Assembly: GCA_965226745.1 (NCBI GenBank)
Contig: CBDDDS010000005.1
Location: 850,389 to 914,388 of the forward strand
Length of the DNA: 64,000 nt
Direction of reading: 5' to 3'
DNA from: Dehalococcoidia bacterium
GTDB taxonomy: Bacteria > Chloroflexota > Dehalococcoidia > Lucifugimonadales > SAR202-VII-2
Under the pieces are notes generated by a model, which saw only the letters and a list, made by a program, of their open reading frames with translations, made no database searches and was not told where the DNA came from. Positions within the stretch are counted from its first letter, which is position 1, and each line of letters begins with the position of its first letter. This document shows positions 10,244-33,814 of this stretch, one piece after another. Position numbers and translations under genes: made by a program.

Positions 10244-10358
10244 GTTGCCTCCTGTGGGTCCGGCGTTGTCCGGGTAGCCGGCCCATTATACACAAAGCAT
10301 CGCCGCAACCCCGATGGTGCGGGATTGCGGCGATGCTCTTAGCCGGTGTTGGAGCGGA

Positions 10359-11606: not shown

Positions 11607-11760
11607 GCTCCCCTCCAGGAACCGTCTTGACAGGGTGATCCCCGCCCAACTGAAACTAGCGGCATCATAGCAGGCGACAGATAGGCGGTCAATGCAATGC
11701 GAACGAGGCAGCGGGCGACCGATGCCTACTCGCTGTAGTTCCCGTAGAGGCTGCTTCGCG

Positions 11761-11905
11761 TCCCCCATCCTAACCTTGCCCCGGCTACGGGGGAAGGGTT
11801 TTGGTCGCACAACGCCAGGTTGATGGGGGTTATCGTCGGAAGGATATGGAGCCATTCGCGCTTGGCGCCGGTTGCGCAACGGTCACCGGCTACGGGGGAA
11901 GGGCC
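11761..11905. repeat. two dispersed REP-like GC hairpins (CCCC-GGCTAC-GGGG, with the CATCCTAACCTT core in inverted orientation)
   Basis: tcccccatcctaaccttgccccggctacgggggaaggg at 11761 and caccggctacgggggaagggcc at 11884. Same core as the arrays at 16478-16803 and 19925-20765. Confidence 0.7.
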
Positions 11906-11955
11906 GGGACGCTGCTCCCGCCTGGCGCCTGGAGCAGCGTCCCTAGGGAATATAG

Positions 11956-16330: not shown

Positions 16331-16477
16331 GCATAGGGAACGCCTGAACAACTCCCTGTAGGCCGGACTGAGTTGACTGTGGGGGTCTTACGGAGACGTT
16401 CAGCCGCTCCACGGCGCTGCGACAGGGGTTGTTGGGGCCGGTTGAAGGCCCCAGCCCGGGCGATTCCCCACCTCCCA

Positions 16478-16803
16478 TCCCCGCCCCGTACTCAGGGGCG
16501 GCCTAGCAATCGTCCCCCTCTGCAATGAGCAAGGTCAGGATGCGCTCCCCCTCCGTTCCCCAAGCAGGGCGCAGGGGGCTGCTCTGTCCCTTCCCCTGTA
16601 CTCGGGGGAAGGTTAGGATGGGGGTCCCCGGCCCGCCAAGGTAAGCAAACGACGCCCCCCTCCTTTCCCCCAGCAGGGTGCAGGGGGCGCAGCCCCCGCC
16701 GGGGGTACAGCGAGTCCCCCTGTTTCTAAAAACGTTGGAGGGTGGGACGGTGGGACAACGGCGCACGCCAAGCCAGACCCTTCGCTGATGGAGGGCGCAG
16801 GCC
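16478..16803 (+). repeat. REP-like array upstream of the methyltransferase: about 2 'A' units plus 1 'B' module
   Basis: A units carry the hairpin CCCC-TGTACTC-GGGG followed by GAAGGTTAGGATGGGGG. The B module (16671-16803) is cagcagggtgcaggg...aaaaacgttggagggtggg...ggagggcgcaggcc. The same modules, in the same orientation, recur at 19925-20765. Confidence 0.85.
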
Positions 16804-16984
16804 AAAACGAAATCCTTCCTCCCATCCCTCCCCGCCCCCTGCCTGAGTGAACGCCGCCGCGGATGGGGAGCGTCAGGCGGCGGTTGTCCAATCGAGGGTG
16901 GGCCAACTAGACTGCGGGTATGGTGCAACGCAGCCTGAGCTTCGACCGCGGATTTGACGATTGCCCCTATATTGACCGGTTGAG

Positions 16985-19891
16985 TTGTTGAACGACGTGC
17001 CCCACCAGACCGAACCCAACGCCAACAACGCCCTGGGAGACCTGCTCCGCGGCATGATGCCCGGCTGCGAGGTCCGCTCCGAGAATACGCAGACCTTCCC
17101 TGACCATCCGGGGCGCCATGCCGACGTGCTGATCACGGCCCCGGGGCGCTCGCCGGTTGCCGTTGAGGCGGAGTATGAGCCGGCCCCCGAGGCGGAAGAG
17201 GACGCCCATGCGCGGCTGGGCCTGACCGTTGCAGGGGCGCTGCGGACCATCGAGGCGGCCATTGCCGTGCGCTACCCGGAGGCAGTGGAAGACGCCTACG
17301 ACGTGCGCCAGGCCCTGGCGGAAGCGCGCCTTTCCTACTGCGTACTCTACGAGGACGGCAGCCGCTTCCCCGAATCGGGGGGGCTGAACGGTTCGGCGAG
17401 CGACCTTGCCGACCTGGTGCGCCTGGTGTCGGTGCCGCAGAAGGCGGTGGACGAGGCGGCCGCGGTGCTCGAACACGGAATCGGGCAGGCGGCAAGCGTA
17501 CTCGATGACCTGGCGAAGCAGCGGCCTGCCATCATCACGGCGATAGCCCGCCTGCTGGGCATGGCCAACGTGCCCCAGACGCGCCGCATGGCCTGCGCCA
17601 TCGTCGCCAACGCCATGGTGTTCCACGAGCGGATTGCGGGGATGCACGACGAGGTCAAGCCGCTGGGGTTGGTGTTCGGCCCCAACGTTGGGAACCCGCA
17701 GGCCGAGGTGGAGAAAGCCTGGTCCGCCATCCTGAAGATCAACTACTGGCCCATATTCGCCATTGCCAAGGACATCTTGGGGCAGTTGCCGCCGGACAGC
17801 GCCGCCCAGGTGCTGCGGGGCCTGAGGGACACCGCTCAGACGGTGAACACCACCGGCGTGGACAATGCCCACAACCTGACCGGGCGCATCTTCCAGCGGC
17901 TGATCGCCGACCGGAAGTACCTGGCGACGTTCTACACCCTACCGGCGTCGGCGGCGCTGCTCGCGCGGCTGGCCGTCGCCAAGATGGACGGCGTGGACTG
18001 GTCGGATGCCGAGGCCATCGGGAAGCTGCGGGTTGCCGACTTCGCCTGCGGCACCGGCGCGTTGCTGTCTGCGGTGTACGAGCAGATTGCGGCCAGGCGC
18101 GAGCGGGCCGGGGGCAATCCGGCCGAGCTGCACCGGGCGATGATGGAGGAAGTGCTCTACGGCTGCGACGTGATGCCGTCGGCCATCCACATCACGGGGT
18201 CGACGCTTTCGGGAGTGGAGCCATCGGTGGGTTTTGAAAACTCCCGCCTGTACACCATGCCCTACGGCCGGCAGCGCGACGGGACGGTGAAGATTGGGTC
18301 GTTGGAGCTGCTGCAATCCTCGACGGCGCTGACGCTGTTCAACACGAGCGATCCGGCGATGCGCACGGGCAGCGCCGGGGAGGAGACGGCGGCGCAGGTC
18401 ACCGCGGAGATGCCCGACGAGGGTTTTGACCTGGTGATCATGAACCCGCCGTTTACCAGGAACGTGACTCGCGAAGGCGCATACGCTGACACAGTAGCCG
18501 CTGCCTTTGCGGCTTTTGGGGCAAGTGACGCAGACCAGAGGCAGATGGCAAAGCGAATGGAGGGCTTGAAGAAGGACACCTGCTATCACGGCAACGCCGG
18601 CATAGCTTCCGCGTTCGCGGCGTTGGCCAACCGAAAGCTCAAGCCCGGCGGCGTTCTTGCCCTGGTGCTGCCTCTGTCAGTGGCTAACGGCCTGTCATGG
18701 CAGGGTTTTCGGGAGATGCTGACGCGTAAGTATACGGATATAACGGTCTTGAGTATCGCAGCAAACGGTCGAGACATGTCCTTCTCGGCCGATACGGGCA
18801 TGGCGGAGTGCCTCGTAATCGCCCGCAAACTCAAGCCGGACGAACCGCCCTACGACCGGACGCACTTCACATCGCTTCGGCACAGACCGCAAGGGTTTGT
18901 TGATGCCGACGCTACCTTCAAAGGCATAGATACCGGTAACCACGTTAGGCGGGTCGAGGATGGGCCATACGGCGGCACGCCCCTGAACATAGGGAGTAGC
19001 CTGGCCGGTGAAACGATAACCGCCCCATGCGACCCAGGCGGGGGAAACTGGGGCGCGGTGCGCTTGGCCGACCATTCTTTGGCTCAAACCGCCTATGCCC
19101 TGTCCCAATCCGGGTTGTGGCTTCCCGGCAGCGGATCCTCAGTTGAGTTGAAGGTGGGGTTGCTAGGTGGCATAGGCAAACTCGGCACTTACGATCTTGA
19201 TATTATTGGACCACTTCCCCGTGGACCTTTCGACAAAGTAGCTCCCAGCCCGACGGCCACATACCCCGCCCTTTGGAACCACGACGCCAAAAATGAGACC
19301 TGGATGGTCTGTAAGCCTGACTCGCAGCTACAGGTTCGGCAGGGGATGGAAGCGAAAGCGGCCACGGTATGGGACACCGCCAGCCGCGCCCACATCAACC
19401 GTGACTTTACGTTCGGTTCCCAACCACTCGCGGTTGCATTCACAGACCAGGAATCAGTGGGTGGTAGGGTGTGGCCCAACGTGACCTTCGGTGACAAGCG
19501 GTTTAACTATGCCTTCACGGTCTGGGGCAACAGCACTCTGGGCTTGTTGTCGTATTGGTGGCACTCCAGCCGTCAGCAATCGAGCAAGGCAAGCATGACT
19601 ATCCGCTCCGCCGAAACCATCCCCGTACTGGACTTCCGCGCCCTCACTGACGAGCAGTTGCTGATGGCTGAGTCGATCTTCAACGAGTTCCGGGACAAGG
19701 AGCTCAAGCCCGCCTACCTCGCGGACGCCGACGCCAACCGGGCGCTGCTGGACCGCCGGGTCATCTGTGACCTGCTGGGGTTCGACGAGGATACTTACCT
19801 GGGCGTGCGCCGGTTGGCGGCCAAGTGGTGCGCCGAACCGTCGGTGCACGGAGGGAAGCCGCGACCGCCGGGCAGCGCGCTGGTCAGCTAG
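16985..19891 (+). CDS. large gamma-class N6-adenine DNA methyltransferase with extra N- and C-terminal domains (possible type IIG/IIL restriction-modification fusion or orphan MTase)
   Basis: 968 aa. Has the AdoMet motif I VADFACGTGALL, the catalytic motif IV DLVIMNPPF, and an FYT-type motif (ATFYTLPASAALLA) upstream. The N-terminal HADVLI-x11-EAEYE is only loosely PD-(D/E)xK-like. The start is uncertain (TTG 16985 or ATG 17054). Confidence 0.8.
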   Translation: MLNDVPHQTEPNANNALGDLLRGMMPGCEVRSENTQTFPDHPGRHADVLITAPGRSPVAVEAEYEPAPEAEEDAHARLGLTVAGALRTIEAAIAVRYPEAVEDAYDVRQALAEARLSYCVLYEDGSRFPESGGLNGSASDLADLVRLVSVPQKAVDEAAAVLEHGIGQAASVLDDLAKQRPAIITAIARLLGMANVPQTRRMACAIVANAMVFHERIAGMHDEVKPLGLVFGPNVGNPQAEVEKAWSAILKINYWPIFAIAKDILGQLPPDSAAQVLRGLRDTAQTVNTTGVDNAHNLTGRIFQRLIADRKYLATFYTLPASAALLARLAVAKMDGVDWSDAEAIGKLRVADFACGTGALLSAVYEQIAARRERAGGNPAELHRAMMEEVLYGCDVMPSAIHITGSTLSGVEPSVGFENSRLYTMPYGRQRDGTVKIGSLELLQSSTALTLFNTSDPAMRTGSAGEETAAQVTAEMPDEGFDLVIMNPPFTRNVTREGAYADTVAAAFAAFGASDADQRQMAKRMEGLKKDTCYHGNAGIASAFAALANRKLKPGGVLALVLPLSVANGLSWQGFREMLTRKYTDITVLSIAANGRDMSFSADTGMAECLVIARKLKPDEPPYDRTHFTSLRHRPQGFVDADATFKGIDTGNHVRRVEDGPYGGTPLNIGSSLAGETITAPCDPGGGNWGAVRLADHSLAQTAYALSQSGLWLPGSGSSVELKVGLLGGIGKLGTYDLDIIGPLPRGPFDKVAPSPTATYPALWNHDAKNETWMVCKPDSQLQVRQGMEAKAATVWDTASRAHINRDFTFGSQPLAVAFTDQESVGGRVWPNVTFGDKRFNYAFTVWGNSTLGLLSYWWHSSRQQSSKASMTIRSAETIPVLDFRALTDEQLLMAESIFNEFRDKELKPAYLADADANRALLDRRVICDLLGFDEDTYLGVRRLAAKWCAEPSVHGGKPRPPGSALVS

Positions 19892-19924
19892 GGATCCTCT
19901 GAACAAGCCCCCGCCCCCGGGGAA

Positions 19925-20765
19925 CCTCCCACCCCTGCCCCCGCCTACGGGGGCAGCCTCTCTTCCTTCCCTCATACTCGGGGGAAGGCTAGGAAGCGTC
20001 CCCGCCAGGTCAAGCAAACCACGCCCCCTCCATCCCCCAAGCGAGGTGCAGGGGGCTGCTCTGTTCCTGCCCCTGTACTCGGGGGAAGGCTAGGAAGCGT
20101 CCCCGCCAGGTCAGCAAACCACGCCCCTTCCCTCCCCCAAGCGAGGCGCAGGGGGCTGCCCTGTCCCTGCCCCTGTACTCGGGGGAAGGCTAGGAAGCGT
20201 CCCCGCCAGGTCAGCAAACCACGCCCCTTCCCTCCCCCAAGCGAGGTGCAGGGGGTTGCTCTGTCCCTGCCCCTGTACTCGGGGGAAGGTTAGGATGGGG
20301 GTCCCCGCCAGGTCAGCAAACCACACCCCTTCCCTCCCCCAAGCGAGGTGCAGGGGGTTGCTCTGTCCCTGCCCCTGTACTCGGGGGAAGGCTAGGAAGG
20401 GGGTCCCTGCCCCCGTCCCCCAGCAGGGTGCAGGGAGCGCAGCCCCCGCCGGGGGTACAGGGGGAGTCCCCCTGTACCCAAAAACGTTGGAGGGCGGTGC
20501 GGGCGGGATAGCGGCGCACGCCACCATACCCCCCCTCTCTCCTTCCCCTCAGCCCCTGCCCCCGAGTACGGGGGCAGCCTAGGAAGCCTCTCGACGCGCC
20601 AAGGTGAGCAAACCACGCCCCCGCCATCCCCAAGCAGGGTGCAGGGGGTGCAGCCCCCGCCGGGGGGACAGGGGGAGTCCCCCTGTCCCCAAAAACGTTG
20701 GAGGGTGGGCCGGTGGGACAGCGGCGCACGCCAAGCCAAACCCTTCGCTGAAGGAGGGCGCAAGC
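19925..20765 (+). repeat. REP-like array downstream of the methyltransferase: about 5 tandem 'A' units of about 100 bp, then B'(truncated)-A-B modules
   Basis: TACTCGGGGGAAGG cores at 19975, 20076, 20176, 20276 and 20378 (spacing 100-102 bp). B modules at 20421-20523 (truncated) and 20632-20765. Units abut one another with no unique spacers. Confidence 0.9.
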
Positions 20766-20797
20766 CACAGCAAGACCATCCGTCCAGGGAGAGTCCC

Positions 20798-21215
20798 TGC
20801 CATCCCCCTATTGCAAAATACGAACAAGTGTGCTATAGTACCCCCATGAAGTCGGCCACCGGCCCCCTTCTCTTTCTCGGAGCCTGCCGCATACGTTGAG
20901 CACTGTGGGCTAACCATAGAGAATCCCCCTGTGGCAGGGGCGCTGAGGGAACAACCCAAGGGGCAAGACCCTCCGAGGAAGGCTGGGGCCGGAGCGAATG
21001 CCGTTGTAGGGCATAGGCTCTTGGGAGCCGCTTAGGCTCCCCGCGGTTTCGCTAAGGCTCGCGACGGCTCCGTCTCAGATCTGTCCCGGCTCCGTCACGG
21101 CTCCCTTCGAGAGCCGGCTGGTAAACGTCGCGAAGTGTCGCCAACTGTCCCACAGTCGTGACATCTGTCCCCTGGAGTGCTATGGATTACCGCTCTCGCT
21201 CCCGCCGCCTACCGC
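20798..21215 (+). repeat. element A of a 3-member promoter/leader element family (unknown function)
   Basis: Alignable by eye with 28126-28585: high identity over the first 250 nt or so, weaker in the middle, and shared again at gtgctatggattaccgctc. Contains a conserved hairpin GGGAGCC-GCTTA-GGCTCCC, GGCTCC motifs at multiples of about 11 nt, and the tail GGCTCCGTCACGG...GCCGGCTGG. Confidence 0.8.
20811..20839 (+). promoter_or_regulatory. sigma70-type promoter of element A
   Basis: TTGCAA-17 nt-TATAGT with spacer AATACGAACAAGTGTGC. An ATG lies 6 nt after the -10 box. Confidence 0.6.
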
Positions 21216-21489
21216 GCAAACCACGCAGGGCGCGACGCCTACAGGCAGAAGCGCGGTGGGTTCCGGGGCGGGACGGCTATCCGGACGGTGAAGCGGCCCC
21301 GGTCTTGGCCTCGCCGGGCTCGCATCGGCGGCAGGCTGAAGGCGCTCTCCTCAGCCTCGCAGACAAAGCCATCGAGGCGGAGCTGGCCCGGGGGCGGGTG
21401 AGGGGGCAGGCTAGGAAGGGCGCCTTCTCCTGGCAGGCGCTCGAATCGCAGTGCGTCTCTCACAGCTTCTTCAGAGGTTCTCGGGCAGC

Positions 21490-22326
21490 CTAGGCGTCGA
21501 TGGTCTGGCCGCCGTCCACGGCCAACGCGTGGCCGGTGACGAACGAGGCCTCGTCTGAGGCTAGGAAAAGCATCCCATAGGCGATCTCCTCAGGGTTCGC
21601 CAAACGCTGGAGACAACGATTGCGATTCGCGGAGGCCTGAAGAGCCGCCTGGCCCTCTTCCGGAGTCCTCCCCTCGGTGAGGTTCCTCAGCAGGCGCGGC
21701 GTCGCTGTGCCGCCGGGGCAGACGCAGTTCACGCGAATGCCCATCGGGCCGTAGTCGATGGCCATGCTCCGGGTCAGCAAAACGACGCCTCCCTTGGATG
21801 CGCTGTAGGCCGCGTAGTCGTTGGTTCCCAGGAGTCCATGGGTCGATGCGGTGTTCACGATGCTCCCCCTGCCCTGCGCCATCAAATGGGGCAAGCCAGC
21901 CTTGGAGCACAGGAACATCGAGGTCAGGTTGATGTTGATGAGGCGCTTCCATTCTGCTTCCGTGAGCTGGTCGACCCGGCCTCTGATGCCGGTCCCGGCG
22001 TTGTTGAGCAGGATGTCCAGACCTCCGAAGCGCTCCAGGGCCAGCGCCATCATCCCCTGGCAGCTTTCGGCGGACGTAACGTCAGCCTGAAAGAAGACTG
22101 CCTCGCCGCCTTCGCTCTGGATGAGCGCATCAATGCGGGGCGCGATGACCTCCACGAGGTCCACGCAGACCACCTTGGCCCCTTCGCGGGCGAACAGTCT
22201 GGCCGCCGCCCGCCCGATGCCGCTGTTGGCCCCGGTGATGACGGCGACTTTTCCCGCCAGCCGGCCCCGGCCGGAGCCCATCATCGGGTGTTCGTCAGTG
22301 CCCGGCGAGGTTGTTGTTGATGTCAT
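21490..22326 (-). CDS. classical short-chain dehydrogenase/reductase, tandem paralog 1 of 6
   Basis: 278 aa with TGANSGIGRA, NNAG and catalytic S...YSASK. Shares the N-terminal DEHPMMGSGRGRL extension with all the paralogs. Confidence 0.9.
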   Translation of the reverse strand: MTSTTTSPGTDEHPMMGSGRGRLAGKVAVITGANSGIGRAAARLFAREGAKVVCVDLVEVIAPRIDALIQSEGGEAVFFQADVTSAESCQGMMALALERFGGLDILLNNAGTGIRGRVDQLTEAEWKRLININLTSMFLCSKAGLPHLMAQGRGSIVNTASTHGLLGTNDYAAYSASKGGVVLLTRSMAIDYGPMGIRVNCVCPGGTATPRLLRNLTEGRTPEEGQAALQASANRNRCLQRLANPEEIAYGMLFLASDEASFVTGHALAVDGGQTIDA

Positions 22327-22359
22327 GGCAACTCCTTTTTCCAGCGTTGCGCCGCTGTC

Positions 22360-23180
22360 CTAAGCGTCGATGGTCTGGCCGCCGTCCACGGCGAGGGCGT
22401 GGCCGGTGACGAACGAGGCCTCGTCCGAGGCCAGGAAGAGCATAGCGTAGGCGATCTCTCCTCCGGGCTTGCTGGTCGTTGAAGGCAACGGTTCATCTTC
22501 GCTGCCTCCTGGATGGGAACCTGCCGCCGCGCCAGGTTTCCCAGCAGCAGGGGCGTCGCAGTCAGGCCGGGACAAACGCAATTCACCCGTATGCCCATCG
22601 GGCCGCAGTCGATGGCCATGCTTCGCGTCAGCATGACCACCCCGGCCTTGGAAGCACAGTAGGCGGGATTGTTCTCCGTCGCCAGCAGGCCGTACGTGGA
22701 CGCGGTGTTGACGATGCTCCCCCTGCCCTGCGCCATCATGTGGGGCAGGGCCGCTTTGGAGCAAAGAAACACCGAGGTCAGGTTGACGTCGATGAGGCGT
22801 TCCCAGTCTCCCAGCGGGAGAACGTCCACCCGCCCGCGAGCCGTTGTCCCGGCGTTGTTCAGGAGAATGTCCAACCCCCCAAAGCGCTCCAGGGCCAGCG
22901 CCATCATCTCCTGGCAGCTTTCGGCGGACGTGACATCCGCCTGGAAGAAGACCGCCTCGCCGCCGTCACCTTGGATAAGCGCGTCGATGCGCGGGGTAAT
23001 GACCTCCGCGAGGTCCACACAAACGACCTTAGCGCCCTCGCGGGCGAATAGCCTGGCCGCTGCCCGACCGATGCCGCTGTTGGCGCCGGTGATGACGGCA
23101 ACCTTGCCCGCCAGCCGTCCCCTCCCGGGGCCCATCATCGGGTGCTCGTTGGCGCCCTGTGCAGCTGTTGCAGAAGTCAT
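22360..23180 (-). pseudogene. SDR tandem paralog 2, apparently frameshifted near 22458
   Basis: The 5' part is in the frame of ORF 22323..23180. The conserved C-terminus (EIAYAMLFLASDEASFVTGHALAVDGGQTIDA) sits in the frame of ORF 22360..22764. An extra dinucleotide in GGAGGAGAGATCGCC, relative to the paralogs, explains the shift. It also has a shorter loop before NRCLQR. Confidence 0.7.
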
Positions 23181-23224
23181 GGCTGGTCCAAGGGTCTAGC
23201 GCAGTCCCCAGAGGGGGTGTTGCG

Positions 23225-23290
23225 CGGCCCCCATCCTAACCTTCCCCCGGGTACGAGGAGAGGGACGGAAGGAGGGGGAATGGACGGGGG
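23225..23290. repeat. dispersed REP-like core (inverted orientation) between SDR paralogs 2 and 3
   Basis: cccccatcctaaccttcccccgggtacgagg matches the reverse complement of the A-unit core. Confidence 0.7.
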
Positions 23291-23335
23291 GATTCTCCCG
23301 TCTCGCGCCTGTAACAACATCCCTGGGAAGTGCAG

Positions 23336-24172
23336 CTAAGCGTCGATGGTCTGGCCGCCGTCCACGGCCAACGCGTGGCCGGTGACGAACGAGGCCTCAT
23401 CGGAGGCCAGGAACAGCATGCCGTAGGCGATCTCCTCTGGGTTGGCGAGGCGCGACAGGCATCGGTTGATGTTGGCCGCGGCCTGAATGGAAGCCTCAGC
23501 GTCCTCGGGGCTTTTGCCCTGCGTCAGATTGCGCAGCAGCCGGGGCGTCGCCGTGGCGCCGGGGCAAACACAGTTCACGCGGATGCCCATGGGCCCGTAG
23601 TCGATAGCCATGCTTCGGGTCAGTAGGACCACGCCACCCTTGGAAGCGCAGTAGGCGGAGTAGCTCTCCGTGGCCAACAGCCCAAAGGTGGACGCTGTGT
23701 TGATGATGCTGCCGCGGCCCTGCGCCATCATGTGAGGCAGCGCCGCCTTGGATCCCAGGAAGACGGAGTTGAGGTTGATGTCCAGGAGGCGTTTCCAGTC
23801 CGTCTCTTCGAGCTGGTCGACTCGGCCTCTGATGCCGGTCCCGGCGTTGTTGACCAGAACGTCGAGACCTCCAAAGCGCTCCAACGCCAGGTTCACCATG
23901 CCCTGGCAGCTCTCGGCGGACGTGACGTCGGCCTGAAAGAAGACGGCCTCGCCGCCGTCGCCCTGGATCAGTGCGTCGATGCGCGGGGTAATGACCTCCG
24001 CCACGTCCACACAAACGACCCTAGCCCCCTCGCGGGAGAAGAGCCTGGCCGCCGCCCGCCCAATGCCGCTGTTGGCGCCGGTGATGACGGCGACCTTGCC
24101 TTCCAGGCGGCCCCTGCCGGGGCCTAGTCCGGGATGCTCGTCGGCGCCGGGTGAAGATGTTGCCGATGTCAT
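23336..24172 (-). CDS. classical SDR, tandem paralog 3
   Basis: Start at MTSATSSPGADEHPGLG (ATG 24172 after GGAGGG). Same motifs as paralog 1. Confidence 0.9.
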   Translation of the reverse strand: MTSATSSPGADEHPGLGPGRGRLEGKVAVITGANSGIGRAAARLFSREGARVVCVDVAEVITPRIDALIQGDGGEAVFFQADVTSAESCQGMVNLALERFGGLDVLVNNAGTGIRGRVDQLEETDWKRLLDINLNSVFLGSKAALPHMMAQGRGSIINTASTFGLLATESYSAYCASKGGVVLLTRSMAIDYGPMGIRVNCVCPGATATPRLLRNLTQGKSPEDAEASIQAAANINRCLSRLANPEEIAYGMLFLASDEASFVTGHALAVDGGQTIDA

Positions 24173-24204
24173 TGAATGCCCTCCAGGGTGCGAATGAAGG
24201 CGTC

Positions 24205-25041
24205 CTACGCCTTGATGGTCTGCCCCCCATCCACGCACAGCGCGTGGCCGGTGACGAACGAAGCCTCGTCGGAAGCTAGAAACACCATGCCGTAGGCGAT
24301 TTCCTCGGGGTTGGCGAGTCGCTTGAGGGCGTGGTTGGTGTCAGCGACGGCGTCGAGGGCGGCCTGACCTTCTTCAGGGCTCTTGCCCTGTGTCAGGCCC
24401 CGTATCAGCCTTGGCGTGGCGGTGCCCCCGGGGCAAAGACAGTTCACCCGGATGCCCATGGGCCCGTAGTCGATGGCCATGCTCCGGGTCAAGAGGATTA
24501 CCGCCCCCTTCGATGCGCAATAAGCAGCGTACCGGCTCACCGCTAACAGCCCGAACGTCGAGGCAGTGTTGATGATGCTGCCTTGGCCCCGTTCCATCAT
24601 GTGGGGCAGCGCGGCCTTCGATCCCAAGAACACGGAGTTGAGGTTGATGTCGAGGAGGCCGCTCCAGTCTGCGAACGTGAGCTCGTCGACCCGGCCAAAC
24701 ACGCCAGTGCCGGCATTGTTCACCAGAACGTCGAGACCTCCAAAGCGCTCTAGCGCCAATGCAACCATGCCCTGGCAGCTCTCAGGGGAGGTGACGTCCG
24801 CCTGGAAAAAGACGGCCTCTCCGCCATCGCTTTCAATCAATGCGTCGATGCGGGGCGTAATGACCTCCGCCACGTCCACGCAAACGACCTTGGCGCCCTC
24901 GCGGGCGAAGAGACGAGCCGCGGCGCGGCCAATGCCGCTGTTGGCGCCAGTGATAACGGCAACCTTACCTTCCAGCCGCCCGCGGCCGGGGCCCATCATG
25001 GAATGTTCGTCAGCGCTTGGCGCGGCCGATGCGGACGTCAT
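24205..25041 (-). CDS. classical SDR, tandem paralog 4
   Basis: 278 aa with the same motifs. Exactly 885 bp from the equivalent point in paralog 5. Confidence 0.9.
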   Translation of the reverse strand: MTSASAAPSADEHSMMGPGRGRLEGKVAVITGANSGIGRAAARLFAREGAKVVCVDVAEVITPRIDALIESDGGEAVFFQADVTSPESCQGMVALALERFGGLDVLVNNAGTGVFGRVDELTFADWSGLLDINLNSVFLGSKAALPHMMERGQGSIINTASTFGLLAVSRYAAYCASKGAVILLTRSMAIDYGPMGIRVNCLCPGGTATPRLIRGLTQGKSPEEGQAALDAVADTNHALKRLANPEEIAYGMVFLASDEASFVTGHALCVDGGQTIKA

Positions 25042-25089
25042 GGCTCCTCCTCGGCTAGCCGCTTCGGGCTATGGCTGGTTTCGAGAATG

Positions 25090-25926
25090 TTAGGCGTCCG
25101 TGGTCTGGCCGCCGTCCACGGCGAGGGCGTGGCCGGTGACGAACGAAGCCTCGTCCGAGGCCAGGAAGAGCATCCCGTAGGCGATCTCCTCCGGCTGCGC
25201 CAATCGTTGGATGGCCCGATTGATGGCGGCGGCGGCGGCCACAGAGGCCTCGGCCTCCGCCGGGCTCTTGCCTTCCGTCAGAATCCTCAATAGCCGGGGC
25301 GTCGCCGTCCCGCCGGGGCAGATGCAGTTGACCCGAATGCCCATCGGCCCGTAGTCGATGGCCATGCTCCGAGTCAGCAGCACGACGCCGCCCTTGGAGG
25401 CGCTGTAGACGGCATAGCTGGCCGTGCCCAACAGACCGAAGGTGGAAGCAGTGTTGACAATGCTCCCCTTACCTTTGGACATCATGTGCGGCAACGCCGC
25501 CTTCGACCCAAGGAACACGCCGGTCAGGTTGAGGTCCACAATCCTCTTCCAGTCCCCTTCTGATAGCTGGTCGACGCGGCCCCACACGCCCGCGCCGGCG
25601 TTGTTGACGAGGATATCCAGGTCTCCGAATCGCTCTAGGGCCAGGTTCACCATGCCCTGGCAGCTCTCGGCAGAGGTAACGTCTCCCAGGAAGAAAGCCG
25701 CCTCGCCCCCCTCACCTTGAATGAGAGCGTCAACGCGGGGCGCGATATCCTCAACAAGGTCAACGCAGACCACTTTGGCGCCCTCTCGGGCGAAGAGACG
25801 GGCCGTAGCGCGGCCGATGCCGCTGTTGGCGCCGGTGACGACGGCAACCTTGCCCTCCAGCCGCCCCCTCCCGGAACCCATCATGGGATGTTCGTCAGCG
25901 CCTGACGAGGCTGCTTGGGACGTCAT
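25090..25926 (-). CDS. classical SDR, tandem paralog 5
   Basis: 278 aa with the same motifs. The 48-nt spacer is homologous to the spacer after paralog 4. Confidence 0.9.
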   Translation of the reverse strand: MTSQAASSGADEHPMMGSGRGRLEGKVAVVTGANSGIGRATARLFAREGAKVVCVDLVEDIAPRVDALIQGEGGEAAFFLGDVTSAESCQGMVNLALERFGDLDILVNNAGAGVWGRVDQLSEGDWKRIVDLNLTGVFLGSKAALPHMMSKGKGSIVNTASTFGLLGTASYAVYSASKGGVVLLTRSMAIDYGPMGIRVNCICPGGTATPRLLRILTEGKSPAEAEASVAAAAAINRAIQRLAQPEEIAYGMLFLASDEASFVTGHALAVDGGQTTDA

Positions 25927-25974
25927 GGCTCCTCCTTGGGTAACCGCTTCGGGCTGTAATTGATTTCGGGGATG

Positions 25975-26793
25975 CTAAGCGTCGATGGTCTGGCCGCCGT
26001 CCACGGCGAGGGCGTGGCCGGTGACGAACGATGCCTCGTCCGACGCCAGGAAGAGCATACCGTAGGCGATCTCCTCCGGGTGCGCCAATCGTTGGATGGC
26101 CCGGTTGATCTTGGCGGCCTCTGCTATGGCAGCCTCGGGGTCGGGCTGCGAGTTGAAGAAGCGGAGCAACCTTGGCGTAGCCGTAGCGCCGGGGCACACG
26201 CAGTTCACCCTGATTCCCATAGGGCCGTAGTCGATGGCCATGCTCCGGGTCAGCAGCACCACGCCTCCCTTCGAAGCACAGTAGGCAGCGTAGTCCTCCG
26301 ACGCCAGCAAACCGAACGTTGAAGCGGTATTGATGATGCTCCCGCGCCCCTTTTCCATCATGTGCGGCAGGGCGGCCTGAGAGCCGTTGAACACGCTGTT
26401 CAGGTTCGTATCGATCACGGAGCCCCATTGCTCGGCGGTTAGCTGGTCCACCCTGCCGCGGATGCCCGTGCCCGCGTTATTCACCAGGATATGCAGATCG
26501 CCGTAGGTGTTCAGCGCCGTGGCCACCATTCGGTCGCAGTCGGCGCGATTGGTCACATTCACGTTGACGAAGGTGCACTCGCCTCCCTGGCTCTTGATGA
26601 GATCGTCGATACGAGGCTGAATGTCCTCCACGAAGTCTACCCCAACGACCTTGGCGCCCTCTCTGGCGAAGAGGTCCGCAGTCGCTCTTCCGATGCCGCT
26701 GTTGGCGCCGGTGACGATGGCGACCTTGCCCTCGAGCCGCCCCCTGCCTGGGCCCAATCCCGGATGCTCTTGCACTGAAGCCTGCGTGGTCAC
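25975..26793 (-). CDS. classical SDR, tandem paralog 6 (most divergent)
   Basis: 272 aa with TGANSGIGRA, NNAG and YCASK. Confidence 0.9.
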   Translation of the reverse strand: MTTQASVQEHPGLGPGRGRLEGKVAIVTGANSGIGRATADLFAREGAKVVGVDFVEDIQPRIDDLIKSQGGECTFVNVNVTNRADCDRMVATALNTYGDLHILVNNAGTGIRGRVDQLTAEQWGSVIDTNLNSVFNGSQAALPHMMEKGRGSIINTASTFGLLASEDYAAYCASKGGVVLLTRSMAIDYGPMGIRVNCVCPGATATPRLLRFFNSQPDPEAAIAEAAKINRAIQRLAHPEEIAYGMLFLASDEASFVTGHALAVDGGQTIDA

Positions 26794-26828
26794 GATGATC
26801 CTCCTATCAGCCGGGTGTAATGCAACAT

Positions 26829-26861
26829 GGGACTGCCCCGCCTCGCTTGGGGGACAGTCCC
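26829..26861 (-). other. intra-operon GC hairpin between the amidohydrolase and SDR paralog 6
   Basis: GGGACTGCCCC-loop-GGGGGACAGTCCC, with one bulge. Confidence 0.35.
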
Positions 26862-26880
26862 CGCAATGGCTACGCAGTGA

Positions 26881-28005
26881 CTATGCGCCGTTGATCCCGT
26901 AGAGCGCCCGCGGGTTGTCGATGAGAATCTTGTTCTTGACCTCTTCGGACAAATCGGGCCGGCGCTTCAGGTCGGGCACAATCCCGTCTTCCCTGGACTG
27001 GTCCTGGTGCCCGTAATCGGAGCCGATGATGATGTTGTCCTCGCCGATGAAGTTCAGCAAGTAGCCAATGTCCTCGTCGACCTCGGTGGCAACGTAGAGG
27101 CGATAGTCGCGGAACAGTTGCGGCCCCCACCAATCGCCCCAGTTGGGCCCGGTGGCCGTGACCTGGAAGCCGGCCTTCGACGACCGCCGCAGCAGGTGCA
27201 TGACGTAGGGGACCCAGGACGACGCGGCCTCCACAAAAGCGAACCGGAGATCGGGGAACCGCTCGGGGATTTTGTTCGCGACGATGTCTCGAAAGGCGAA
27301 GAGGGGCATCACCCGGACGTGAGGGAACACGTGGCTGTACTGGATGTCTATGAGCTTGGTCAGAGCCGGAACTCCGCCCCCGGTGTGGAAACAGATGGGT
27401 AGGCCGGCCCGCTGCGCCGCCTCGTAAATGGGGAAGAAATAGGGCTCCGCCACCGAGCGGGTGCCCTCGATGCCCCGGAACAGCAGTCCCACGGCGCCGT
27501 TCTCTTTCACGACGTTGATCTCCTCTATGGTGGCCTCAACCGAGCGCAGCGGAACGGGGGCCACCCAGCGGATGCGGTTCCCGCCCTTGGCCCAAACGTC
27601 CGCCATGTAGCGGTTGTAGGCGCGGCACAGAGCGATCTCCAAGTCCACGTCGTCCGTCAGGTACATGATGAACATGGTGGGGTAGACGACTTCAATGTCA
27701 ACGTCTCGTTCGTCCATCGCCTTGATGCGGCCGGGTACATCGGAGATGCCGCGCACCCCTGCTGCAACGTCGGTGCGGGACTCCTCCTTGATGCCGCCGG
27801 GCACGTGCAGGCCGAAGCTTCCCTTCCCTTTGGGCCGGGGGAATATCTCCCCGTCTATGAGCCAGAACGCGTTGAACTCGCCGTACCACGTATCGGGAGG
27901 AGCGATGAGCCGGACGGGGCGTCGCTCGTACCACTCCCTGTCCATGTGTTCCCAGATACCGGGATGCTCGATGATGTGGGTGTCGGCGTCGACGATGCCC
28001 GCCAT
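26881..28005 (-). CDS. amidohydrolase_2 family metal-dependent hydrolase/decarboxylase (ACMSD-like TIM barrel)
   Basis: Start at MAGIVDADTHIIEHP (ATG 28005 after GGGAGGTGG). The N-terminal D-x-H-x-H-type metal motif and the length of about 374 aa fit the family. Confidence 0.8.
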   Translation of the reverse strand: MAGIVDADTHIIEHPGIWEHMDREWYERRPVRLIAPPDTWYGEFNAFWLIDGEIFPRPKGKGSFGLHVPGGIKEESRTDVAAGVRGISDVPGRIKAMDERDVDIEVVYPTMFIMYLTDDVDLEIALCRAYNRYMADVWAKGGNRIRWVAPVPLRSVEATIEEINVVKENGAVGLLFRGIEGTRSVAEPYFFPIYEAAQRAGLPICFHTGGGVPALTKLIDIQYSHVFPHVRVMPLFAFRDIVANKIPERFPDLRFAFVEAASSWVPYVMHLLRRSSKAGFQVTATGPNWGDWWGPQLFRDYRLYVATEVDEDIGYLLNFIGEDNIIIGSDYGHQDQSREDGIVPDLKRRPDLSEEVKNKILIDNPRALYGINGA

Positions 28006-28078
28006 AGTAACCACCTCCCGTCGAATTGCGTCGCGATTCCACCAGCGGCCAGTCGGACGCGGCCAAGGGACACGGTAT

Positions 28079-28107
28079 GTTATGGCAGCGCTGGGGCAGG
28101 CTGTCAA
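28079..28107 (-). promoter_or_regulatory. candidate promoter of the amidohydrolase-SDR operon
   Basis: On the minus strand, TTGACA-17 nt-CATAAC lies about 75 nt upstream of the start. It sits back-to-back with the element B promoter. Confidence 0.45.
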
Positions 28108-28125
28108 GGGAACGGCGCGCTGCGC

Positions 28126-28585
28126 CTGCCTCTCCCTATTGCATAATACGAACTTTTGTACTATAGTATCGCCATGAAGTCGGCCGCCAGCCCGCTTCTC
28201 TTCCTTGGAACCTGCCGCATACGTCTTGTACTGGGGAATCCATAGAGAATGCCCCGGTGGCAGCGCTTGGGGAACATCCCCCAGGCCCACAACCCTCCGA
28301 GGAAGCGTGGGACCAGAGCGAATCCCGTTTCGAGACAAGCTCTTTGGAGCCATAAGGCTCCGCCACAGTTCATGACGATTCGCTACGACATCACTACGGT
28401 TCTTCACAACTCTCTTATGACTTCATTGCGCCTCTGATGCGCCTCTGTGGCGGCTCCGTGCCTGCAAACCCCGAAATCCGGCTGATACGCGTAACGAATC
28501 CTCGCTCACCGTCTCGAACTCTTAACTGTTGGCGCGTGGACGTGCCATAAATTACCGCTCGCGGTCCCGCCAGTCGGCGCCAGGA
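28126..28585 (+). repeat. element B of the promoter/leader element family
   Basis: Homologous to 20798-21215. Has the hairpin GGAGCC-ATAA-GGCTCC, a degenerate run of about 11-nt periodicity at about 28375-28470, and a tail GGCTCCGTGCCTGCA...TCCGGCTGA (28452-28485) nearly identical to element C. Confidence 0.8.
28139..28167 (+). promoter_or_regulatory. sigma70-type promoter of element B
   Basis: TTGCAT-17 nt-TATAGT with spacer AATACGAACTTTTGTAC. An ATG lies 6 nt after the -10 box. Confidence 0.6.
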
Positions 28586-28633
28586 CGGACAGGTCTGAAA
28601 GGGCGTCCAGCAACCGGCAGGCTTGGCCCAGCC

Positions 28634-29542
28634 TCACCGCGCCACCAGGCCAACCGTACCGGCGACGATCATGGCGATGGCCGCGAGCTTGACGGCCAGC
28701 ACTCGCGGCGTGAGGGATTCATGGATGAAGCGGGGCGCCAGCCAACTCACCAGCACCGCATACGCGAATACGAAGAGCGGCCTGGTCGCGTTCAGGGCTG
28801 AGGCCCCGGACACCGGGCCAACACTGAATGAGGCGAACAGCAGGTATGTCGCCAGCAGCGCCAGCAACGTGTCCGCCGCGAACAAGGGCACGCGCCGCGG
28901 CCGGTGGCGCACGATCTCCCAGGCCTCTTTGACGGCGGCTCGATTGGCGGAAACGGCCAGGATAGCCACTCCCACTATGAAGAAGTTGATGGTGAATACC
29001 TGAACGGTCGAGAGCTCCGACAGGGCGTCCTTCCCCAGAAGATTCGAAACGCCCGTCGCAAAGCTCGCCAGGAGCAGCAGGAAGAAGGAGGATCCGAGTC
29101 GAAATCCGCCTGAAGCTCCCCCGGCGCGACGGACCGACAACAGGATCGCCCCGGCAACAATCACCACAATGGCACCCCAGTCCAACGGGTCGATCTGTTC
29201 GCCCAGGAAAAGGGCGGCAAGCACTGCAACGAAGATTGGGTACGTCTGGGTGACCGGCAGCGCCCGGGACACCTCCTCTCTGCGGAGCACCCCGAAGAGG
29301 ACGGCCAGCGCGAGGCCGCGGAGCAACCCCGAGGCCAGGGCAGCGCCTATCGACCTGATGGAGTACGACGAGTAGGAAGGGTCCGCTAGAAGGAAGGGAA
29401 TGGAGGTCAGGAGGCTGAGAACGCCCAGGATGAAGAGGATGGCGCGGACGTTCCGCGCCATCCTCTCAACGATGAATTTGTCAAGGATGCTGACTAGGCC
29501 AAAGATGGCCGCGCTGAGAAGCGCCAGAGTAGCCCAGTCCAT
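28634..29542 (-). CDS. DMT superfamily (EamA-like) transporter
   Basis: 302 aa with about 10 hydrophobic segments and a two-repeat organisation typical of EamA proteins. Confidence 0.75.
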   Translation of the reverse strand: MDWATLALLSAAIFGLVSILDKFIVERMARNVRAILFILGVLSLLTSIPFLLADPSYSSYSIRSIGAALASGLLRGLALAVLFGVLRREEVSRALPVTQTYPIFVAVLAALFLGEQIDPLDWGAIVVIVAGAILLSVRRAGGASGGFRLGSSFFLLLLASFATGVSNLLGKDALSELSTVQVFTINFFIVGVAILAVSANRAAVKEAWEIVRHRPRRVPLFAADTLLALLATYLLFASFSVGPVSGASALNATRPLFVFAYAVLVSWLAPRFIHESLTPRVLAVKLAAIAMIVAGTVGLVAR

Positions 29543-29554: not shown

Positions 29555-30733
29555 CTAGTCCACGGGATCCGGCAACCAGCCCCACGGACGGGGACCCCAG
29601 TCCGGGGCAATCACCTCTCCCCGCTTCACCGTCACGAACGGGATCACAGCCCGGTCCACGGTCTGGCGCTGTCCCGTTGAGTCGGCGACAATCCATTTGC
29701 CCTGTTGGACGTCCAGAACGGAGACGTCGCCCTGATAGCCCGGCTTCAGGGTGCCCAACCGGTCGGCGGCGCCCAGGGCCAGGGCAGGCTTGATGGTGGC
29801 CATCTCTATGGTCTGCTCCAGCGTGAAGCCCAAGGCCATGGACCGAGTCATCGTCTCGGCCATGCTATGGACAACCTCCGTGCCGGGAAGCGTCAAGTCG
29901 GTGCTGAGGCAGTCCGGCGCCATGCCCTGGTCCAGCAAACGCCGTCCAACGTCGAAGCTGAAGTTGAAGCGGCCGTGGCCCGTGTCGAAGACCACGCCGC
30001 GCTCCAGAGCGGCTTTGACCTGTGGGTACAGCCTCCCGTTGGCGTCCAGTACGCCACCGTGATGGGAGGTGAACAGGTGCGTCAGGACGTCGCCCTCGTC
30101 GAGGATGTCCATCAGCTCCGTCAGCACGGATTTCTGGCCTACCTTGGCATGGGGGTCGCCTATGTGGACCATCAGCCGGAGCCCGGTCTGCCTGGCAATG
30201 TCCTTGGCGATGCGGGCAAGGTCCATCCCCATGTTCTCCAGGGCTGGGTTTACCATGCGCACCTTGAGGCCGTGGATCTGGTCCTTATACAGGCCGGCGA
30301 TCTTGATGGCCTCGTCGGGGTCTATGTCGTCCGGGCCTCGGACCTCCGGCAGGCTCACGAGGCCGTGGCGGGCGACGTGCATGAACGCCACAACCTCCGT
30401 CTTGCAGTTGGGCAGCACGTACTTGGGAAAACCGCGGAAGTTGTACGGCCCGGCGCTCCCCGCATCCACCACAGTGGTCACGCCAGCCCGAACCCCAGCG
30501 ACATCCGGGTTCAACGCCCTGGGATTCACCGCTTCGTAGACGTGAACGTGAAAGTCTATGAGGCCCGGGGCAACGGTCTTGCCGGGAACGCGGATGCTGC
30601 GCACCGCCTCCGCCTCGGGAATGTCGGGCGCCAGCCGGTCGATGCGGCCACCGGTAATGGCGACGTCCAAGTCGGCATTCAGCCCCTGAGCGGGGTCGAC
30701 GACGCGACCGCCCTTGATCACGAGGTCGTACAT
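29555..30733 (-). CDS. amidohydrolase-superfamily metallohydrolase (dihydroorotase/deacetylase-like)
   Basis: 392 aa. The N-terminal beta-sandwich (DLVIKGGRVVDP) is followed by the GLIDFHVHV metal motif. Confidence 0.8.
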   Translation of the reverse strand: MYDLVIKGGRVVDPAQGLNADLDVAITGGRIDRLAPDIPEAEAVRSIRVPGKTVAPGLIDFHVHVYEAVNPRALNPDVAGVRAGVTTVVDAGSAGPYNFRGFPKYVLPNCKTEVVAFMHVARHGLVSLPEVRGPDDIDPDEAIKIAGLYKDQIHGLKVRMVNPALENMGMDLARIAKDIARQTGLRLMVHIGDPHAKVGQKSVLTELMDILDEGDVLTHLFTSHHGGVLDANGRLYPQVKAALERGVVFDTGHGRFNFSFDVGRRLLDQGMAPDCLSTDLTLPGTEVVHSMAETMTRSMALGFTLEQTIEMATIKPALALGAADRLGTLKPGYQGDVSVLDVQQGKWIVADSTGQRQTVDRAVIPFVTVKRGEVIAPDWGPRPWGWLPDPVD

Positions 30734-32116: not shown

Positions 32117-32203
32117 GCGCGTTGGTGAATCCCCCTGCCACCGCTGCACATCCATAGACTCAGCGGGGACGGTTCGGGAATGGGTCGGACGCAGAGGAGT
32201 TAT

Positions 32204-33814
32204 ATGCCTTTCAAGCAGCGGCGACTTGCATTTGCTCTCCCGGCGCTATTGGTCGTAGTTGCGGCGTGCTCCAGCGGCGGCGCCCCCACCGAGGCTCCCA
32301 CAGACGCGTCGGCGCCCAGCCCTTCGGCGACGGCAGCGCCTGCCCCCGGCGCCTCGGCGACGGCAACACCGATGCCAGCGCCGGAAGAGCCAACACCTTC
32401 CTCTGCTCCCACACGCGCCGGTGGGACCGACGCCCGCGCCACACCCACCGCTACCCCAGACCAGCAAATTCCGGAACCCCCGGTTTTAGAAGGCCGGGGC
32501 AAGCTGATGCTCACCGCGCTCGAAGAGATCATCTTCAGATCGGAGACCGCTGCGCTGCGGGAGATACGGATGGGCGGGGACCCGTCCTATATCCCGGCGC
32601 TCGTGGAGTTGCTCCGGTTCGGGCCTTTCTTCAGGCAGGAACTGGTCGACAGCCTTCTCTACACGCTGGACACGCTGGCGGCGCCCATTGACGGCAGTGA
32701 GTTCTCCACGAAGTTCACCTGGTCTGACTGGGTCATGTGGCTGGCCAGCTACGACGTGGAGCCCCCGGAGGGCTTCGCGGCGTGGAAGGGGTATCTGTAT
32801 ACCCTAGTAGACCCGTCCTGGGCGGTTTTCTTCTATGCCGACTTGCCGACCCGCATCAACATCGGTGAGGTCGTCTGGGGAGGCGTGTTGAAGGACGGCA
32901 TCCCTGATCTCATAGACCCACCCGTCGTCTCCCCGGACGAGGCGACCTATCTGAACCCCGACGACCGGGTGTTCGGTGTCTCTATCAACGGGGAGCACCG
33001 GGCGTACCCCCACCGCATTATGAATCCCCATGAGATGGCCAACGACGTGGTTGGAGGGGCGCCCATCGCTTTAGCGTACTGAACGCTCTGTGGATCGGGA
33101 ATCGTGTATTCCCGCATAGTCAACGGAGAGGTCACCGAGTTCGGCACATCCGGCTTCCTCTACCGAAGCAACAAGCTGATGTACGACCGGGCCACCAATA
33201 CGCTATGGCGCCAGTTCATAGGCGAACCGGTGGTTGGCGAGCTGGCCCACAGCGGCATCGAGCTTGAGACGTTCCCCGTGGTCGTCACCACCTGGCAAGA
33301 GTGGCTCGCCGAGCATCCGGACACAACAGTCCTAGCAATAGAAACGGGTGTCTACAGCCCGGAAAGATACCTCCCGGAATCGAACTCGGGATCCATCTAT
33401 CACCTCTATCGAACGTCGCCGGGGACCATGTTCCCCGTGCCGCTGGAGAGTGACCAACTCATCACCAAGGCGCAAGTCTTGGGCCTTCGGTTCGGCGGAG
33501 AAGCAAGGGCATACGCCCTGGACCGCCTGGCGGAGGCCCCTGTGGTCAACGACACCCTCGGCGGAACGGACTTCGCCATCGTCACGGACTCGGAAGCCCG
33601 GGCCGCTCGCGCCTACGAGCGCGGGGCGCGGACCTTCTCGTTAGGAGAGAACGGCGCCGTGGTGGACGAGAGCGGGAACAGGTGGGCCGCCGGAGAAGAG
33701 GCCCTGGTGCAGGAAGACGAGCCAACTCAGCGGTTGCCCCGGCTACAGGCCCGCAACGCCTACTGGTTCGGATGGTTCTCCAACTATCCCGACACTTCCG
33801 TCTACGAGGGCTAG
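32204..33814 (+). CDS. DUF3179 family lipoprotein, candidate selenoprotein (in-frame UGA at 33080-33082 read as Sec)
   Basis: ORFs 32180..33082 and 33104..33814 are in the same frame, separated only by TGA. The read-through gives PIALAY-U-TLCGSGIVY...FGTSGFLYRSNKLMYDRATNTLW, which matches the DUF3179 signature TYCPLCGSG...SGLLY.SNLVMYDR.T.SLW with U at the first Cys. ATG 32204 follows GAGGAG. Signal peptide with lipobox VAAC. Confidence 0.7.
33096..33114 (+). promoter_or_regulatory. SECIS-like hairpin downstream of the UGA
   Basis: CGGGAAT-CGTGT-ATTCCCG is a perfect 7-bp stem. It starts 14 nt after the UGA, with the apical loop 21 nt after it and a G in the loop. Confidence 0.55.

Follow-up and report, generated by a model that had tools for sequence, protein, structure and literature searches.

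Members of the SAR202 group are known for large families of paralogous genes, and three studies share the idea that such expansions, including those of short-chain dehydrogenases/reductases (SDRs, COG1028), widen the spectrum of dissolved organic compounds open to oxidation (Landry et al. 2017, PMC5395668; Saw et al. 2020, PMC6946804; Lim et al. 2023, PMC10444878). SDRs are proposed to oxidise alicyclic alcohols before Baeyer-Villiger oxygenases act (PMC5395668), group VII is characterised by expansions of Rieske dioxygenases (PMC6946804), and SDR paralogs stand together with amidohydrolase-fold lactonases (COG3618) in parallel non-phosphorylative sugar pathways of cultured SAR202 group I (PMC10444878). 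In the passages searched, the paralogs are counted genome-wide, whereas here we describe one array of six SDR genes, behind a gene for a PF04909 (Amidohydro_2) protein, in a 64,000-nucleotide stretch of a Dehalococcoidia genome (hereafter the window; positions 850389-914388 of contig C5 in a five-contig genome of 3.17 Mb, referred to as G000). No description of a six-gene SDR array was found in the passages searched in the three papers.

The second group to be compared is that of the amidohydrolase-related dinuclear oxygenases (AROs), such as PtmU3, DitZ, SfbO and AibH2 (PMC10811679, PMC10401708, PMC13154177), which resemble the window protein in their fold (PF04909), in a D-x-H near the N-terminus, in a His and a Glu in the central part, and in the Asp, His and Asp of one C-terminal loop. 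AROs are defined by an N-terminal D-x-H, a C-terminal D-x-P-H-x-[D/E] and a further His and Glu (PMC10811679, PMC13154177), a residue set not reported in characterised PF04909 hydrolases or decarboxylases (PMC13154177), and their diiron class includes the terpenoid hydroxylases PtmU3 and DitZ (PMC13154177). The window protein differs from the described AROs in having Gly instead of Pro in the C-terminal motif and in having no Rieske ferredoxin neighbour.

Our reading, which we hold with slightly better than even confidence, is that the locus is an old, vertically inherited cluster that combines a putative diiron ARO hydroxylase with six NAD-type SDRs of differing specificity. The anatomy of the locus, its age, the selection on it and the place of the divergence are shown by the comparisons below, while the oxygenase assignment, the functional coupling and the substrates are inferred. 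The array pattern itself is unsurprising, because the lineage is already known for paralog expansion; what the locus adds is that each copy is conserved with a pocket of its own, that one copy is broken, and that the lead gene can be reassigned to the dinuclear-oxygenase group.

Anatomy of the cluster

The features of the locus, in the order of transcription, are the following.

29555-30733, minus strand: Amidohydro_1 metallohydrolase of 392 aa (Pfam PF01979), the first gene of the cluster; PRK09237-like in NCBIfam, with 369 bits against a cut-off of 371
28634-29542, minus strand: EamA/DMT-family permease of 302 aa (Pfam PF00892)
28126-28585, no strand assigned: copy of a dispersed intergenic repeat between the EamA and PF04909 genes, foreign to the operon in its ancestral form; blastn gave 104 hits across the genome
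26881-28005, minus strand: PF04909 (Amidohydro_2) protein of 374 aa (Pfam E 8.5e-28), carrying the set of metal ligands known from ARO-type dinuclear oxygenases
25975-26793, minus strand: SDR S6, 272 aa, GTG start, the most divergent copy (Pfam, identity, tree)
25090-25926, minus strand: SDR S5, 278 aa (Pfam, identity, tree)
24205-25041, minus strand: SDR S4, 278 aa (Pfam, identity, tree)
23336-24172, minus strand: SDR S3, 278 aa from the ATG at 24172, with GGAGG 7 nt upstream (Pfam, identity)
23181-23335, no strand assigned: S3-S2 spacer of 155 nt, with a fragment of a dispersed genomic repeat of about 100 nt (repeat search)
22323-23180, minus strand: SDR S2, frameshifted; an intact reading would end at 22360 (272 aa; comparison of open reading frames)
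21490-22326, minus strand: SDR S1, 278 aa, the last gene of the array (Pfam, identity, tree)

Seven consecutive genes thus occupy 21490-28005 of the minus strand, the PF04909 gene being followed by six head-to-tail classical SDR genes (21490-26793), as an earlier note on this DNA had stated. All six open reading frames (ORFs) matched Pfam adh_short and adh_short_C2, with E values of 1e-54 to 1e-66. The distance between stop codons is exactly 885 nt both from S6 to S5 and from S5 to S4, and the 48-nt spacers at 25927-25974 and 25042-25089 share 38 of 48 positions when counted by hand, so that the period and the homologous spacers reported in the earlier note are also borne out. The remaining SDR spacers measure 32 nt, 155 nt and, if the frameshift of S2 is set aside, 33 nt. 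Spacers are short, and every gene of the cluster except S2 is preceded by a Shine-Dalgarno motif. An Rfam scan of 19500-28600 gave no match, and a promoter and terminator scan gave counts no higher than those of shuffled controls.

The locus was compared with four further assemblies of the same SAR202 group-VII-like genus: G001, a closed chromosome assembled from a metagenome (OZ253584.1, labelled Dehalococcoidia); G002, the published metagenome-assembled genome 'SAR202-VII-2' (QEVV01000001); the 300-kb contig L065; and the contig L074. G001 and L074 are close relatives of G000 (96.5-97% identical), while G002 and L065 are more distant. In all four, the Amidohydro_1 gene lies at the same position and the Amidohydro_1, EamA, PF04909 and six SDR genes follow in the same order with the same copy lengths; the EamA gene is kept between the Amidohydro_1 and PF04909 genes in 5 of 5 assemblies. 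Two spacers vary: the S3-S2 spacer has 155 nt in G000 versus 30 nt in G002 and 12 nt in L065, and the EamA-PF04909 spacer (28006-28633) has 628 nt versus about 115 nt in G002 and L065.

All six SDR genes are intact in G002 and L065, and S2 is intact in G001 as well. Relative to G001 and L074, the GAGAGA run at 22455-22460 in S2 of G000 is longer by two bases, which fall after the cofactor and catalytic residues; the ORF to 22323 has an aberrant C-terminus, and the conserved C-terminus, EIAYAMLFLASDEASFVTGHALAVDGGQTIDA, lies in another frame, which ends at 22360. S2 is also the least constrained copy, with the highest ortholog dN, and its Shine-Dalgarno motif is the weakest of all copies where it is not absent, as in G000. 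Moreover, the S2 lid is six residues shorter than those of S1 and S3-S5 in all genomes, and S2 of G000 carries two private changes, L183M and Y192C, at otherwise invariant columns. The 2-nt insertion that inactivates S2 in the assembly may reflect incipient decay of the copy under the weakest constraint, or it may be an error of assembly.

Broken copies were also seen in the close relatives. In G001, S5 has a +1 frameshift (an added C outside a homopolymer; L013, 7296-8168), and this is a closed chromosome. In L074, several indels are spread across S6, S3 and S2 (6286-10268); its S2 is without the two extra bases yet broken by another indel, and these indels may be long-read errors. Frameshifts that hit differing SDR copies in close relatives could be decay of redundant copies or errors of long-read assembly.

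Age of the array and divergence between its copies

The exact 885-nt period and the homologous spacers would fit a recent amplification for gene dosage, or an assembly that wrongly multiplied fewer real copies, and the earlier note had proposed amplification by unequal crossing-over. We give a recent amplification and a mis-assembly alike almost no credence. Pairwise identity among the six copies is 68-83% at the protein level and only 68-80% at the nucleotide level, each of five independent assemblies, including a closed chromosome, has the six copies in order, and orthologs cluster by position. Near-identical copies and a variable copy number, which would mark a recent tandem amplification, were not found, six copies being present in 5 of 5 assemblies. 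The array is neither an artefact nor a recent amplification. A tandem duplication fits the period, as had been claimed, but a recent event does not fit copies whose synonymous sites are near saturation. The 885-nt period is rather a fossil of the duplication of a gene-plus-spacer unit, and the only surviving trace of the mechanism.

The identity matrix and the dN/dS estimates that the earlier note had suggested lead to the same age. Between G000 and G002, orthologs show dS of 1.0-2.2 and dN/dS of 0.03-0.09, and between G000 and G001 dN/dS is 0.07-0.13. Since ortholog dN/dS lies at 0.03-0.13, each copy has long been under purifying selection. Paralog dS within G000 is 0.7-1.4, lower because of the stronger bias in GC content at third codon positions (0.82 versus 0.70 in G002). 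As synonymous sites are near saturation, and as the array is common to genomes whose orthologs differ by dS of 1-2, the duplications are ancient. Outside the genus, no array was found with S1 as the query (E <=1e-80) in 38 genomes, each from another family of the same order; the sole match was one single copy in G033, similar to the unlinked SDR S7 described below. Large-scale gene conversion was considered and rejected, as only runs of 20-45 nt were nominally significant in a GENECONV-like permutation test. There is no concerted evolution of note, at most gene conversion at a micro scale.

In a maximum-likelihood tree, the four positional orthologs group into one clade for each of the copies S1, S2, S4, S5 and S6, whereas S3 is split, with E4_S3 placed apart from the clade that its three S3 counterparts form; the branching order among S1-S5 is not resolved in this tree. 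The six array genes are the closest relatives of one another in the genome, the next SDR being S7 (C5:282039-282860), with 53-57% identity, and all others having <=46%. The expectation that the paralogs group with one another rather than with distant subfamilies therefore stands for the genome, and the monophyly of all 24 array genes was not rejected (approximately unbiased test, p = 0.127), but S6 came out as sister to an outside family of single-copy SDRs, with which S7 also groups.

Members of this outside family, found in Deltaproteobacteria, Binatia, Zixibacteria, Acidoferrales and soil metagenomes, are about 270-275 aa long, 57-70% identical to the array copies, annotated only as SDR or 3-oxoacyl-ACP reductase, and marked by the same N-terminal DEHP..G.G.GRL. 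Unlike the array, they stand alone, with no conserved neighbours. The N-terminal extension that the earlier note had considered an unusual trait of the array is indeed carried by all six copies, as [DNQ]EH[PS]..G.GRGRL, but it is not uniform: S1 and S5 have DEHPMMG, S2 NEHPMMG, S4 DEHSMMG, S3 DEHPGLG and S6 QEHPGLG. Nor is it specific to the array: S7 and the G033 homolog have it too, as do 112 of the 120 top-scoring homologs in the database, which span several phyla, and it is therefore the hallmark of a broad SDR subfamily. The extension has low confidence in the AlphaFold model of S1. As a separate observation, Haem_oxygenas_2 (PF14518) genes lie a few kb from the single-copy SDR with the DEHP motif, though never adjacent to it, in all three of the unrelated contigs L071, L072 and L073.

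The place of the divergence along the gene agrees with what had been noticed from the sequence. Measured in windows of 20 codons, protein identity between paralogs is lowest, 0.44, in codons 211-240, the substrate lid (residues 210-235 form two lid helices in the AlphaFold model of S1). It is also low, 0.55-0.58, in codons 111-140 and at the N-terminus, and reaches 0.7-0.95 over most other windows, with at least 0.9 in the Rossmann core, the catalytic region and the C-terminus. Nucleotide identity between orthologs is flat along the gene, at 0.74-0.85. We identified 24 columns that are specific to the copy yet conserved among orthologs (invariant in at least 5 of 6 ortholog groups, with at least three states between groups), of which twelve lie within lid residues 215-239 and the others at 80-81, 114-115, 125, 129, 132, 150, 163, 168-170 and 202. 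Besides the lid, the hot spots are the loop that follows NNAG and the one that follows the catalytic Ser, both of which line the substrate pocket in SDRs. The copies thus differ mainly in three loop segments of the pocket. A lid that diverges between copies and is conserved among orthologs is the pattern that functional specialisation predicts, and the suggestion that the copies are diversifying in specificity is in keeping with it.

The remainder of the SDR machinery is complete. TGxxxGIG (T31-G32...G36-I-G38), S161, Y174 and K178 are invariant in an alignment of 37 sequences and present in all six copies, as are N108-N109-A110-G111 (NNAG, with A110 nearly invariant) and N133, the latter conserved in at least 90%. 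Asp56, in VVCVD at the end of beta-2, is also invariant. An acidic residue at this position marks a preference for NAD in an established rule for SDRs, and Asp56 would accordingly indicate NAD over NADP. In NCBIfam, no specific equivalog was found for the SDRs, and the only match above threshold was the broad 'glucose 1-dehydrogenase' subfamily PRK07231.

Instead of accepting different substrates, the six SDRs might act in series on the hydroxyls of one polyhydroxylated or alicyclic substrate, or form hetero-tetramers. Such an arrangement would agree with the strict retention of six copies in order across the genus, with the tetrameric state normal for SDRs, with the heteromeric BbsCD (7pcs) among the PDB matches, and with the high conservation of the dimer and tetramer interface helices between copies. 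We nevertheless regard it as rather improbable. The catalytic tetrad is complete in 6 of 6 copies, leaving no obvious subunit of purely structural role, and the frameshifts of single copies in G000 and G001 suggest that individual copies are dispensable, which one would not expect of an obligate series or complex.

The lead PF04909 protein

The assignment of the lead protein to the oxygenases is one that we infer from its ligand set, which consists of D8-T-H10, H207, E259 and D330-Y-G-H333-Q-D335, all of whose columns are invariant in 31 homologs. D8-T9-H10 lies on strand E5-10 of the structure model and aligns with DDH of DitZ and DSH of PtmU3, while H207 and E259 align with the His of VSIHIG/LCVHFG and the Glu of IAEAG/FIEHD in PtmU3/SfbO. 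By analogy with the three His and three carboxylates described in the ARO papers, H207 and E259 are the presumed further metal ligands. Two of the three features of the diiron class are present, namely the polar Thr in D-x-H and the non-aromatic Gln after His; the third concerns the gamma-2 position.

Structures and profiles point in the same direction. Among solved structures, the best sequence matches were 8SM6-8SM9, and AibH1H2, PtmU3 and DitZ matched as well. A profile of the 31 sequences, compared with the PDB, retrieved PtmU3, 8SM8, SfbO and DitZ with E values of 4e-20 to 4e-18, whereas ACMSD (2e-12) and LigW (1e-10) scored 6-10 orders of magnitude worse than the AROs. No lactonase (LigI/COG3618) was among the PDB matches, at E <=0.001 by sequence or E <=1e-8 by profile. 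NCBIfam had no match for the PF04909 protein.

The earlier note had taken this protein for a hydrolase or decarboxylase of aromatic or lactone-type substrates. In a related explanation, it would be a true hydrolase, lactonase or decarboxylase, and the SDRs would be sugar, lactol or hydroxy-acid dehydrogenases that feed it or follow it. This would suit the pairing of SDR paralogs with amidohydrolase-fold lactonases in SAR202 sugar pathways (PMC10444878), as well as PRK07231 as the sole NCBIfam match of the SDRs above threshold. The closest homolog outside the genus (P0122, 72% identity; L075, 8001-11052) lies directly ahead of the genes for the beta and alpha subunits of nitrile hydratase; an amide hydrolase would make sense there, and these neighbours hint at a different, possibly amide-related role for P0122. 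We still consider a hydrolytic function unlikely, although it is the alternative to be taken most seriously. The motifs of hydrolases and decarboxylases are missing and the ligand set of a dinuclear oxygenase is present instead, including the His and Asp of the second metal site; D-x-H has been reported in no characterised PF04909 hydrolase or decarboxylase (PMC13154177); the PDB searches retrieved no lactonase within the limits given above; and neither an enolase-superfamily dehydratase nor an aldolase is encoded in the cluster. Thus, the PF04909 protein is somewhat more probably a dinuclear oxygenase than anything else, as judged from these residues, and the catabolic fan-out module that the earlier note had envisaged, if real, would more likely start with hydroxylation than with hydrolysis or decarboxylation.

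Several observations weigh against an oxygenase coupled to the SDRs. The C-terminal D-x-P-H-x-[D/E] is not present to the letter, as Gly replaces the Pro, which is not a ligand, and the three functional residues are kept; DYPH instead of DYGH occurs in 3 of 120 members of the clade. In a fold search, the model of the protein resembled AROs and ACMSD-type decarboxylases alike, with TM scores of 0.65-0.72. No Rieske ferredoxin or reductase was found in the window, the nearest Rieske gene lying about 30 kb away. The nearest PF04909 homologs outside the genus adjoin nitrile hydratase genes or an ABC transporter and not SDRs, and no conserved partner genes were found beside S7 and the single-copy SDR relatives. 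The link between oxygenase and SDRs is therefore confined to synteny within one genus and a modest enrichment. Two of these points can be set in context. Since D-Y-G-H-Q-D lacks the Pro, the published ARO motif filter misses the protein together with its clade (113 of 120 homologs). Rieske neighbours revealed 3,307 of the approximately 17,000 predicted AROs, and most lack one (PMC13154177). G000 has one small ferredoxin, at C4:31789-32040.

The enrichment concerns PF04909-SDR neighbours on the same strand, of which the genome has 5 versus 1.2 expected (maximum 6 in 1000 permutations). Further evidence for coupling lies in synteny that has been kept between genomes with saturated synonymous sites, and in short spacers that carry ribosome-binding sites. 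An Amidohydro_2-SDR pair in the soil contigs L068 and L069 was tried as an ortholog of the cluster and rejected, as the PF04909 protein there is only 32% identical.

Under the explanation that we prefer, a gene-plus-spacer unit was duplicated serially in tandem before the sampled species of the genus diverged, and the copies have evolved independently since. The PF04909 protein, likely an ARO of the diiron type, would hydroxylate C-H bonds of imported organic compounds, and the six dehydrogenases would oxidise the resulting or related secondary alcohols to ketones with NAD+, each perhaps with its own preferred regio-isomer, stereo-isomer or class of substrate. Such a model agrees with the idea of paralog expansion already published for SAR202. 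A partial precedent may be found in the biosynthesis of platensimycin, in which PtmU3 is reported (Dong et al., JACS, 2019) to be followed by the SDR pair PtmO8/PtmO1, which oxidise or reduce the new hydroxyl. PtmO8 (PDB 5F1P) was among the structural relatives of S1 (E 4e-46). We treat this succession of an ARO hydroxylase and SDRs as a lead and not as a test; the platensimycin pathway is biosynthetic, belongs to Streptomyces and uses two unrelated SDRs, whereas the window has six tandem paralogs in a presumably catabolic cluster.

Surroundings, genome-wide paralogs and significance

The spacers of the cluster have been altered by repeats. The repeat copy between the EamA and PF04909 genes contains, by eye, a sigma-70-like TTGCAT-17-TATAGT on the plus strand, antisense into EamA. 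Direct repeats of about 200 nt (20803-21005 and 28131-28329) were examined as possible ends of a mobile cassette and rejected, since both belong to a dispersed element with over 100 copies, and G002 and L065 lack the upstream one. In L065, only 20 nt separate S1 from the DSBA gene (15515-16327). G000 has in this place an insertion of about 5 kb (16400-21450), lineage-specific versus G002 and L065, which carries a gene for an Eco57I-like methylase/restriction protein of 968 aa (16985-19891), a repeat of about 100 nt in four to six tandem copies (19958-20415) and, at about 20780-21450, a dispersed element of 0.4-0.65 kb.

Further downstream, on the strand of the array, 9254-15239 contains a conserved ABC transporter of the branched-chain-amino-acid type (Peripla_BP_6, two permeases, two ATPases) together with an extended SDR of the 3-beta-HSD/epimerase family; gene names here follow the annotation of the syntenic L065, which also has a hydantoinase A-type gene after this block. 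On the other side of the cluster, DUF3179 is present as two consecutive ORFs (32180-33082 and 33104-33814); the same two-gene split in L065 makes an error improbable.

Apart from the cluster, the genome is rich in all three families concerned, with 47 SDR loci, 27 Rieske loci and 80 PF04909 ORFs by phmmer (72 merged tblastn loci). D-x-H, H207 and H333 are found in all 80 PF04909 paralogs, and E259 and D330 are each kept in all but one. At the C-terminus, 23 have D-x-P-H-x-[DE] and 30 have D-x-[GSTA]-H-x-D, while most others have D-x-P-H-E. Several form tandem arrays of their own, for example at C4:20469-25226, C3:258079-262148, C2:172980-178275 and C5:250692-253187. In a first-look search, three congeners had 95-99 PF04909 candidates and one other family had 85, with fewer than 50 elsewhere and fewer than 30 in most other families of the order. 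The literature searched contained no paper that connects SAR202 with PF04909 or COG2159. As a speculation more likely wrong than right, the PF04909 genes of the genus may constitute an unrecognised arsenal of dinuclear oxygenases, with about 80 loci in a genome of 3.2 Mb, some 30 of them having the D-x-G/S/T/A-H-x-D variant that escapes the published motif filter. The cluster would then be a module of 'one hydroxylase, six dehydrogenases', in which a loosely specific oxygenase would turn alicyclic dissolved organic matter into several isomeric alcohols, with one SDR for each.

Large paralog families are thought to be the means by which SAR202 bacteria oxidise recalcitrant dissolved organic matter in the sea, but almost none of these enzymes has a known substrate. 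The seven-gene cluster, in which selection has retained six diverged dehydrogenases beside one putative oxygenase, offers a small and well-defined test bed for the idea that paralog expansion serves as substrate fan-out. If the PF04909 genes do encode such oxygenases, a new oxygenase class would be added to the model of recalcitrant-carbon oxidation in SAR202; and an oxygenase-like PF04909 set, with a clade that escapes the ARO motif, would change how "amidohydrolase" annotations are read, in SAR202 and elsewhere.

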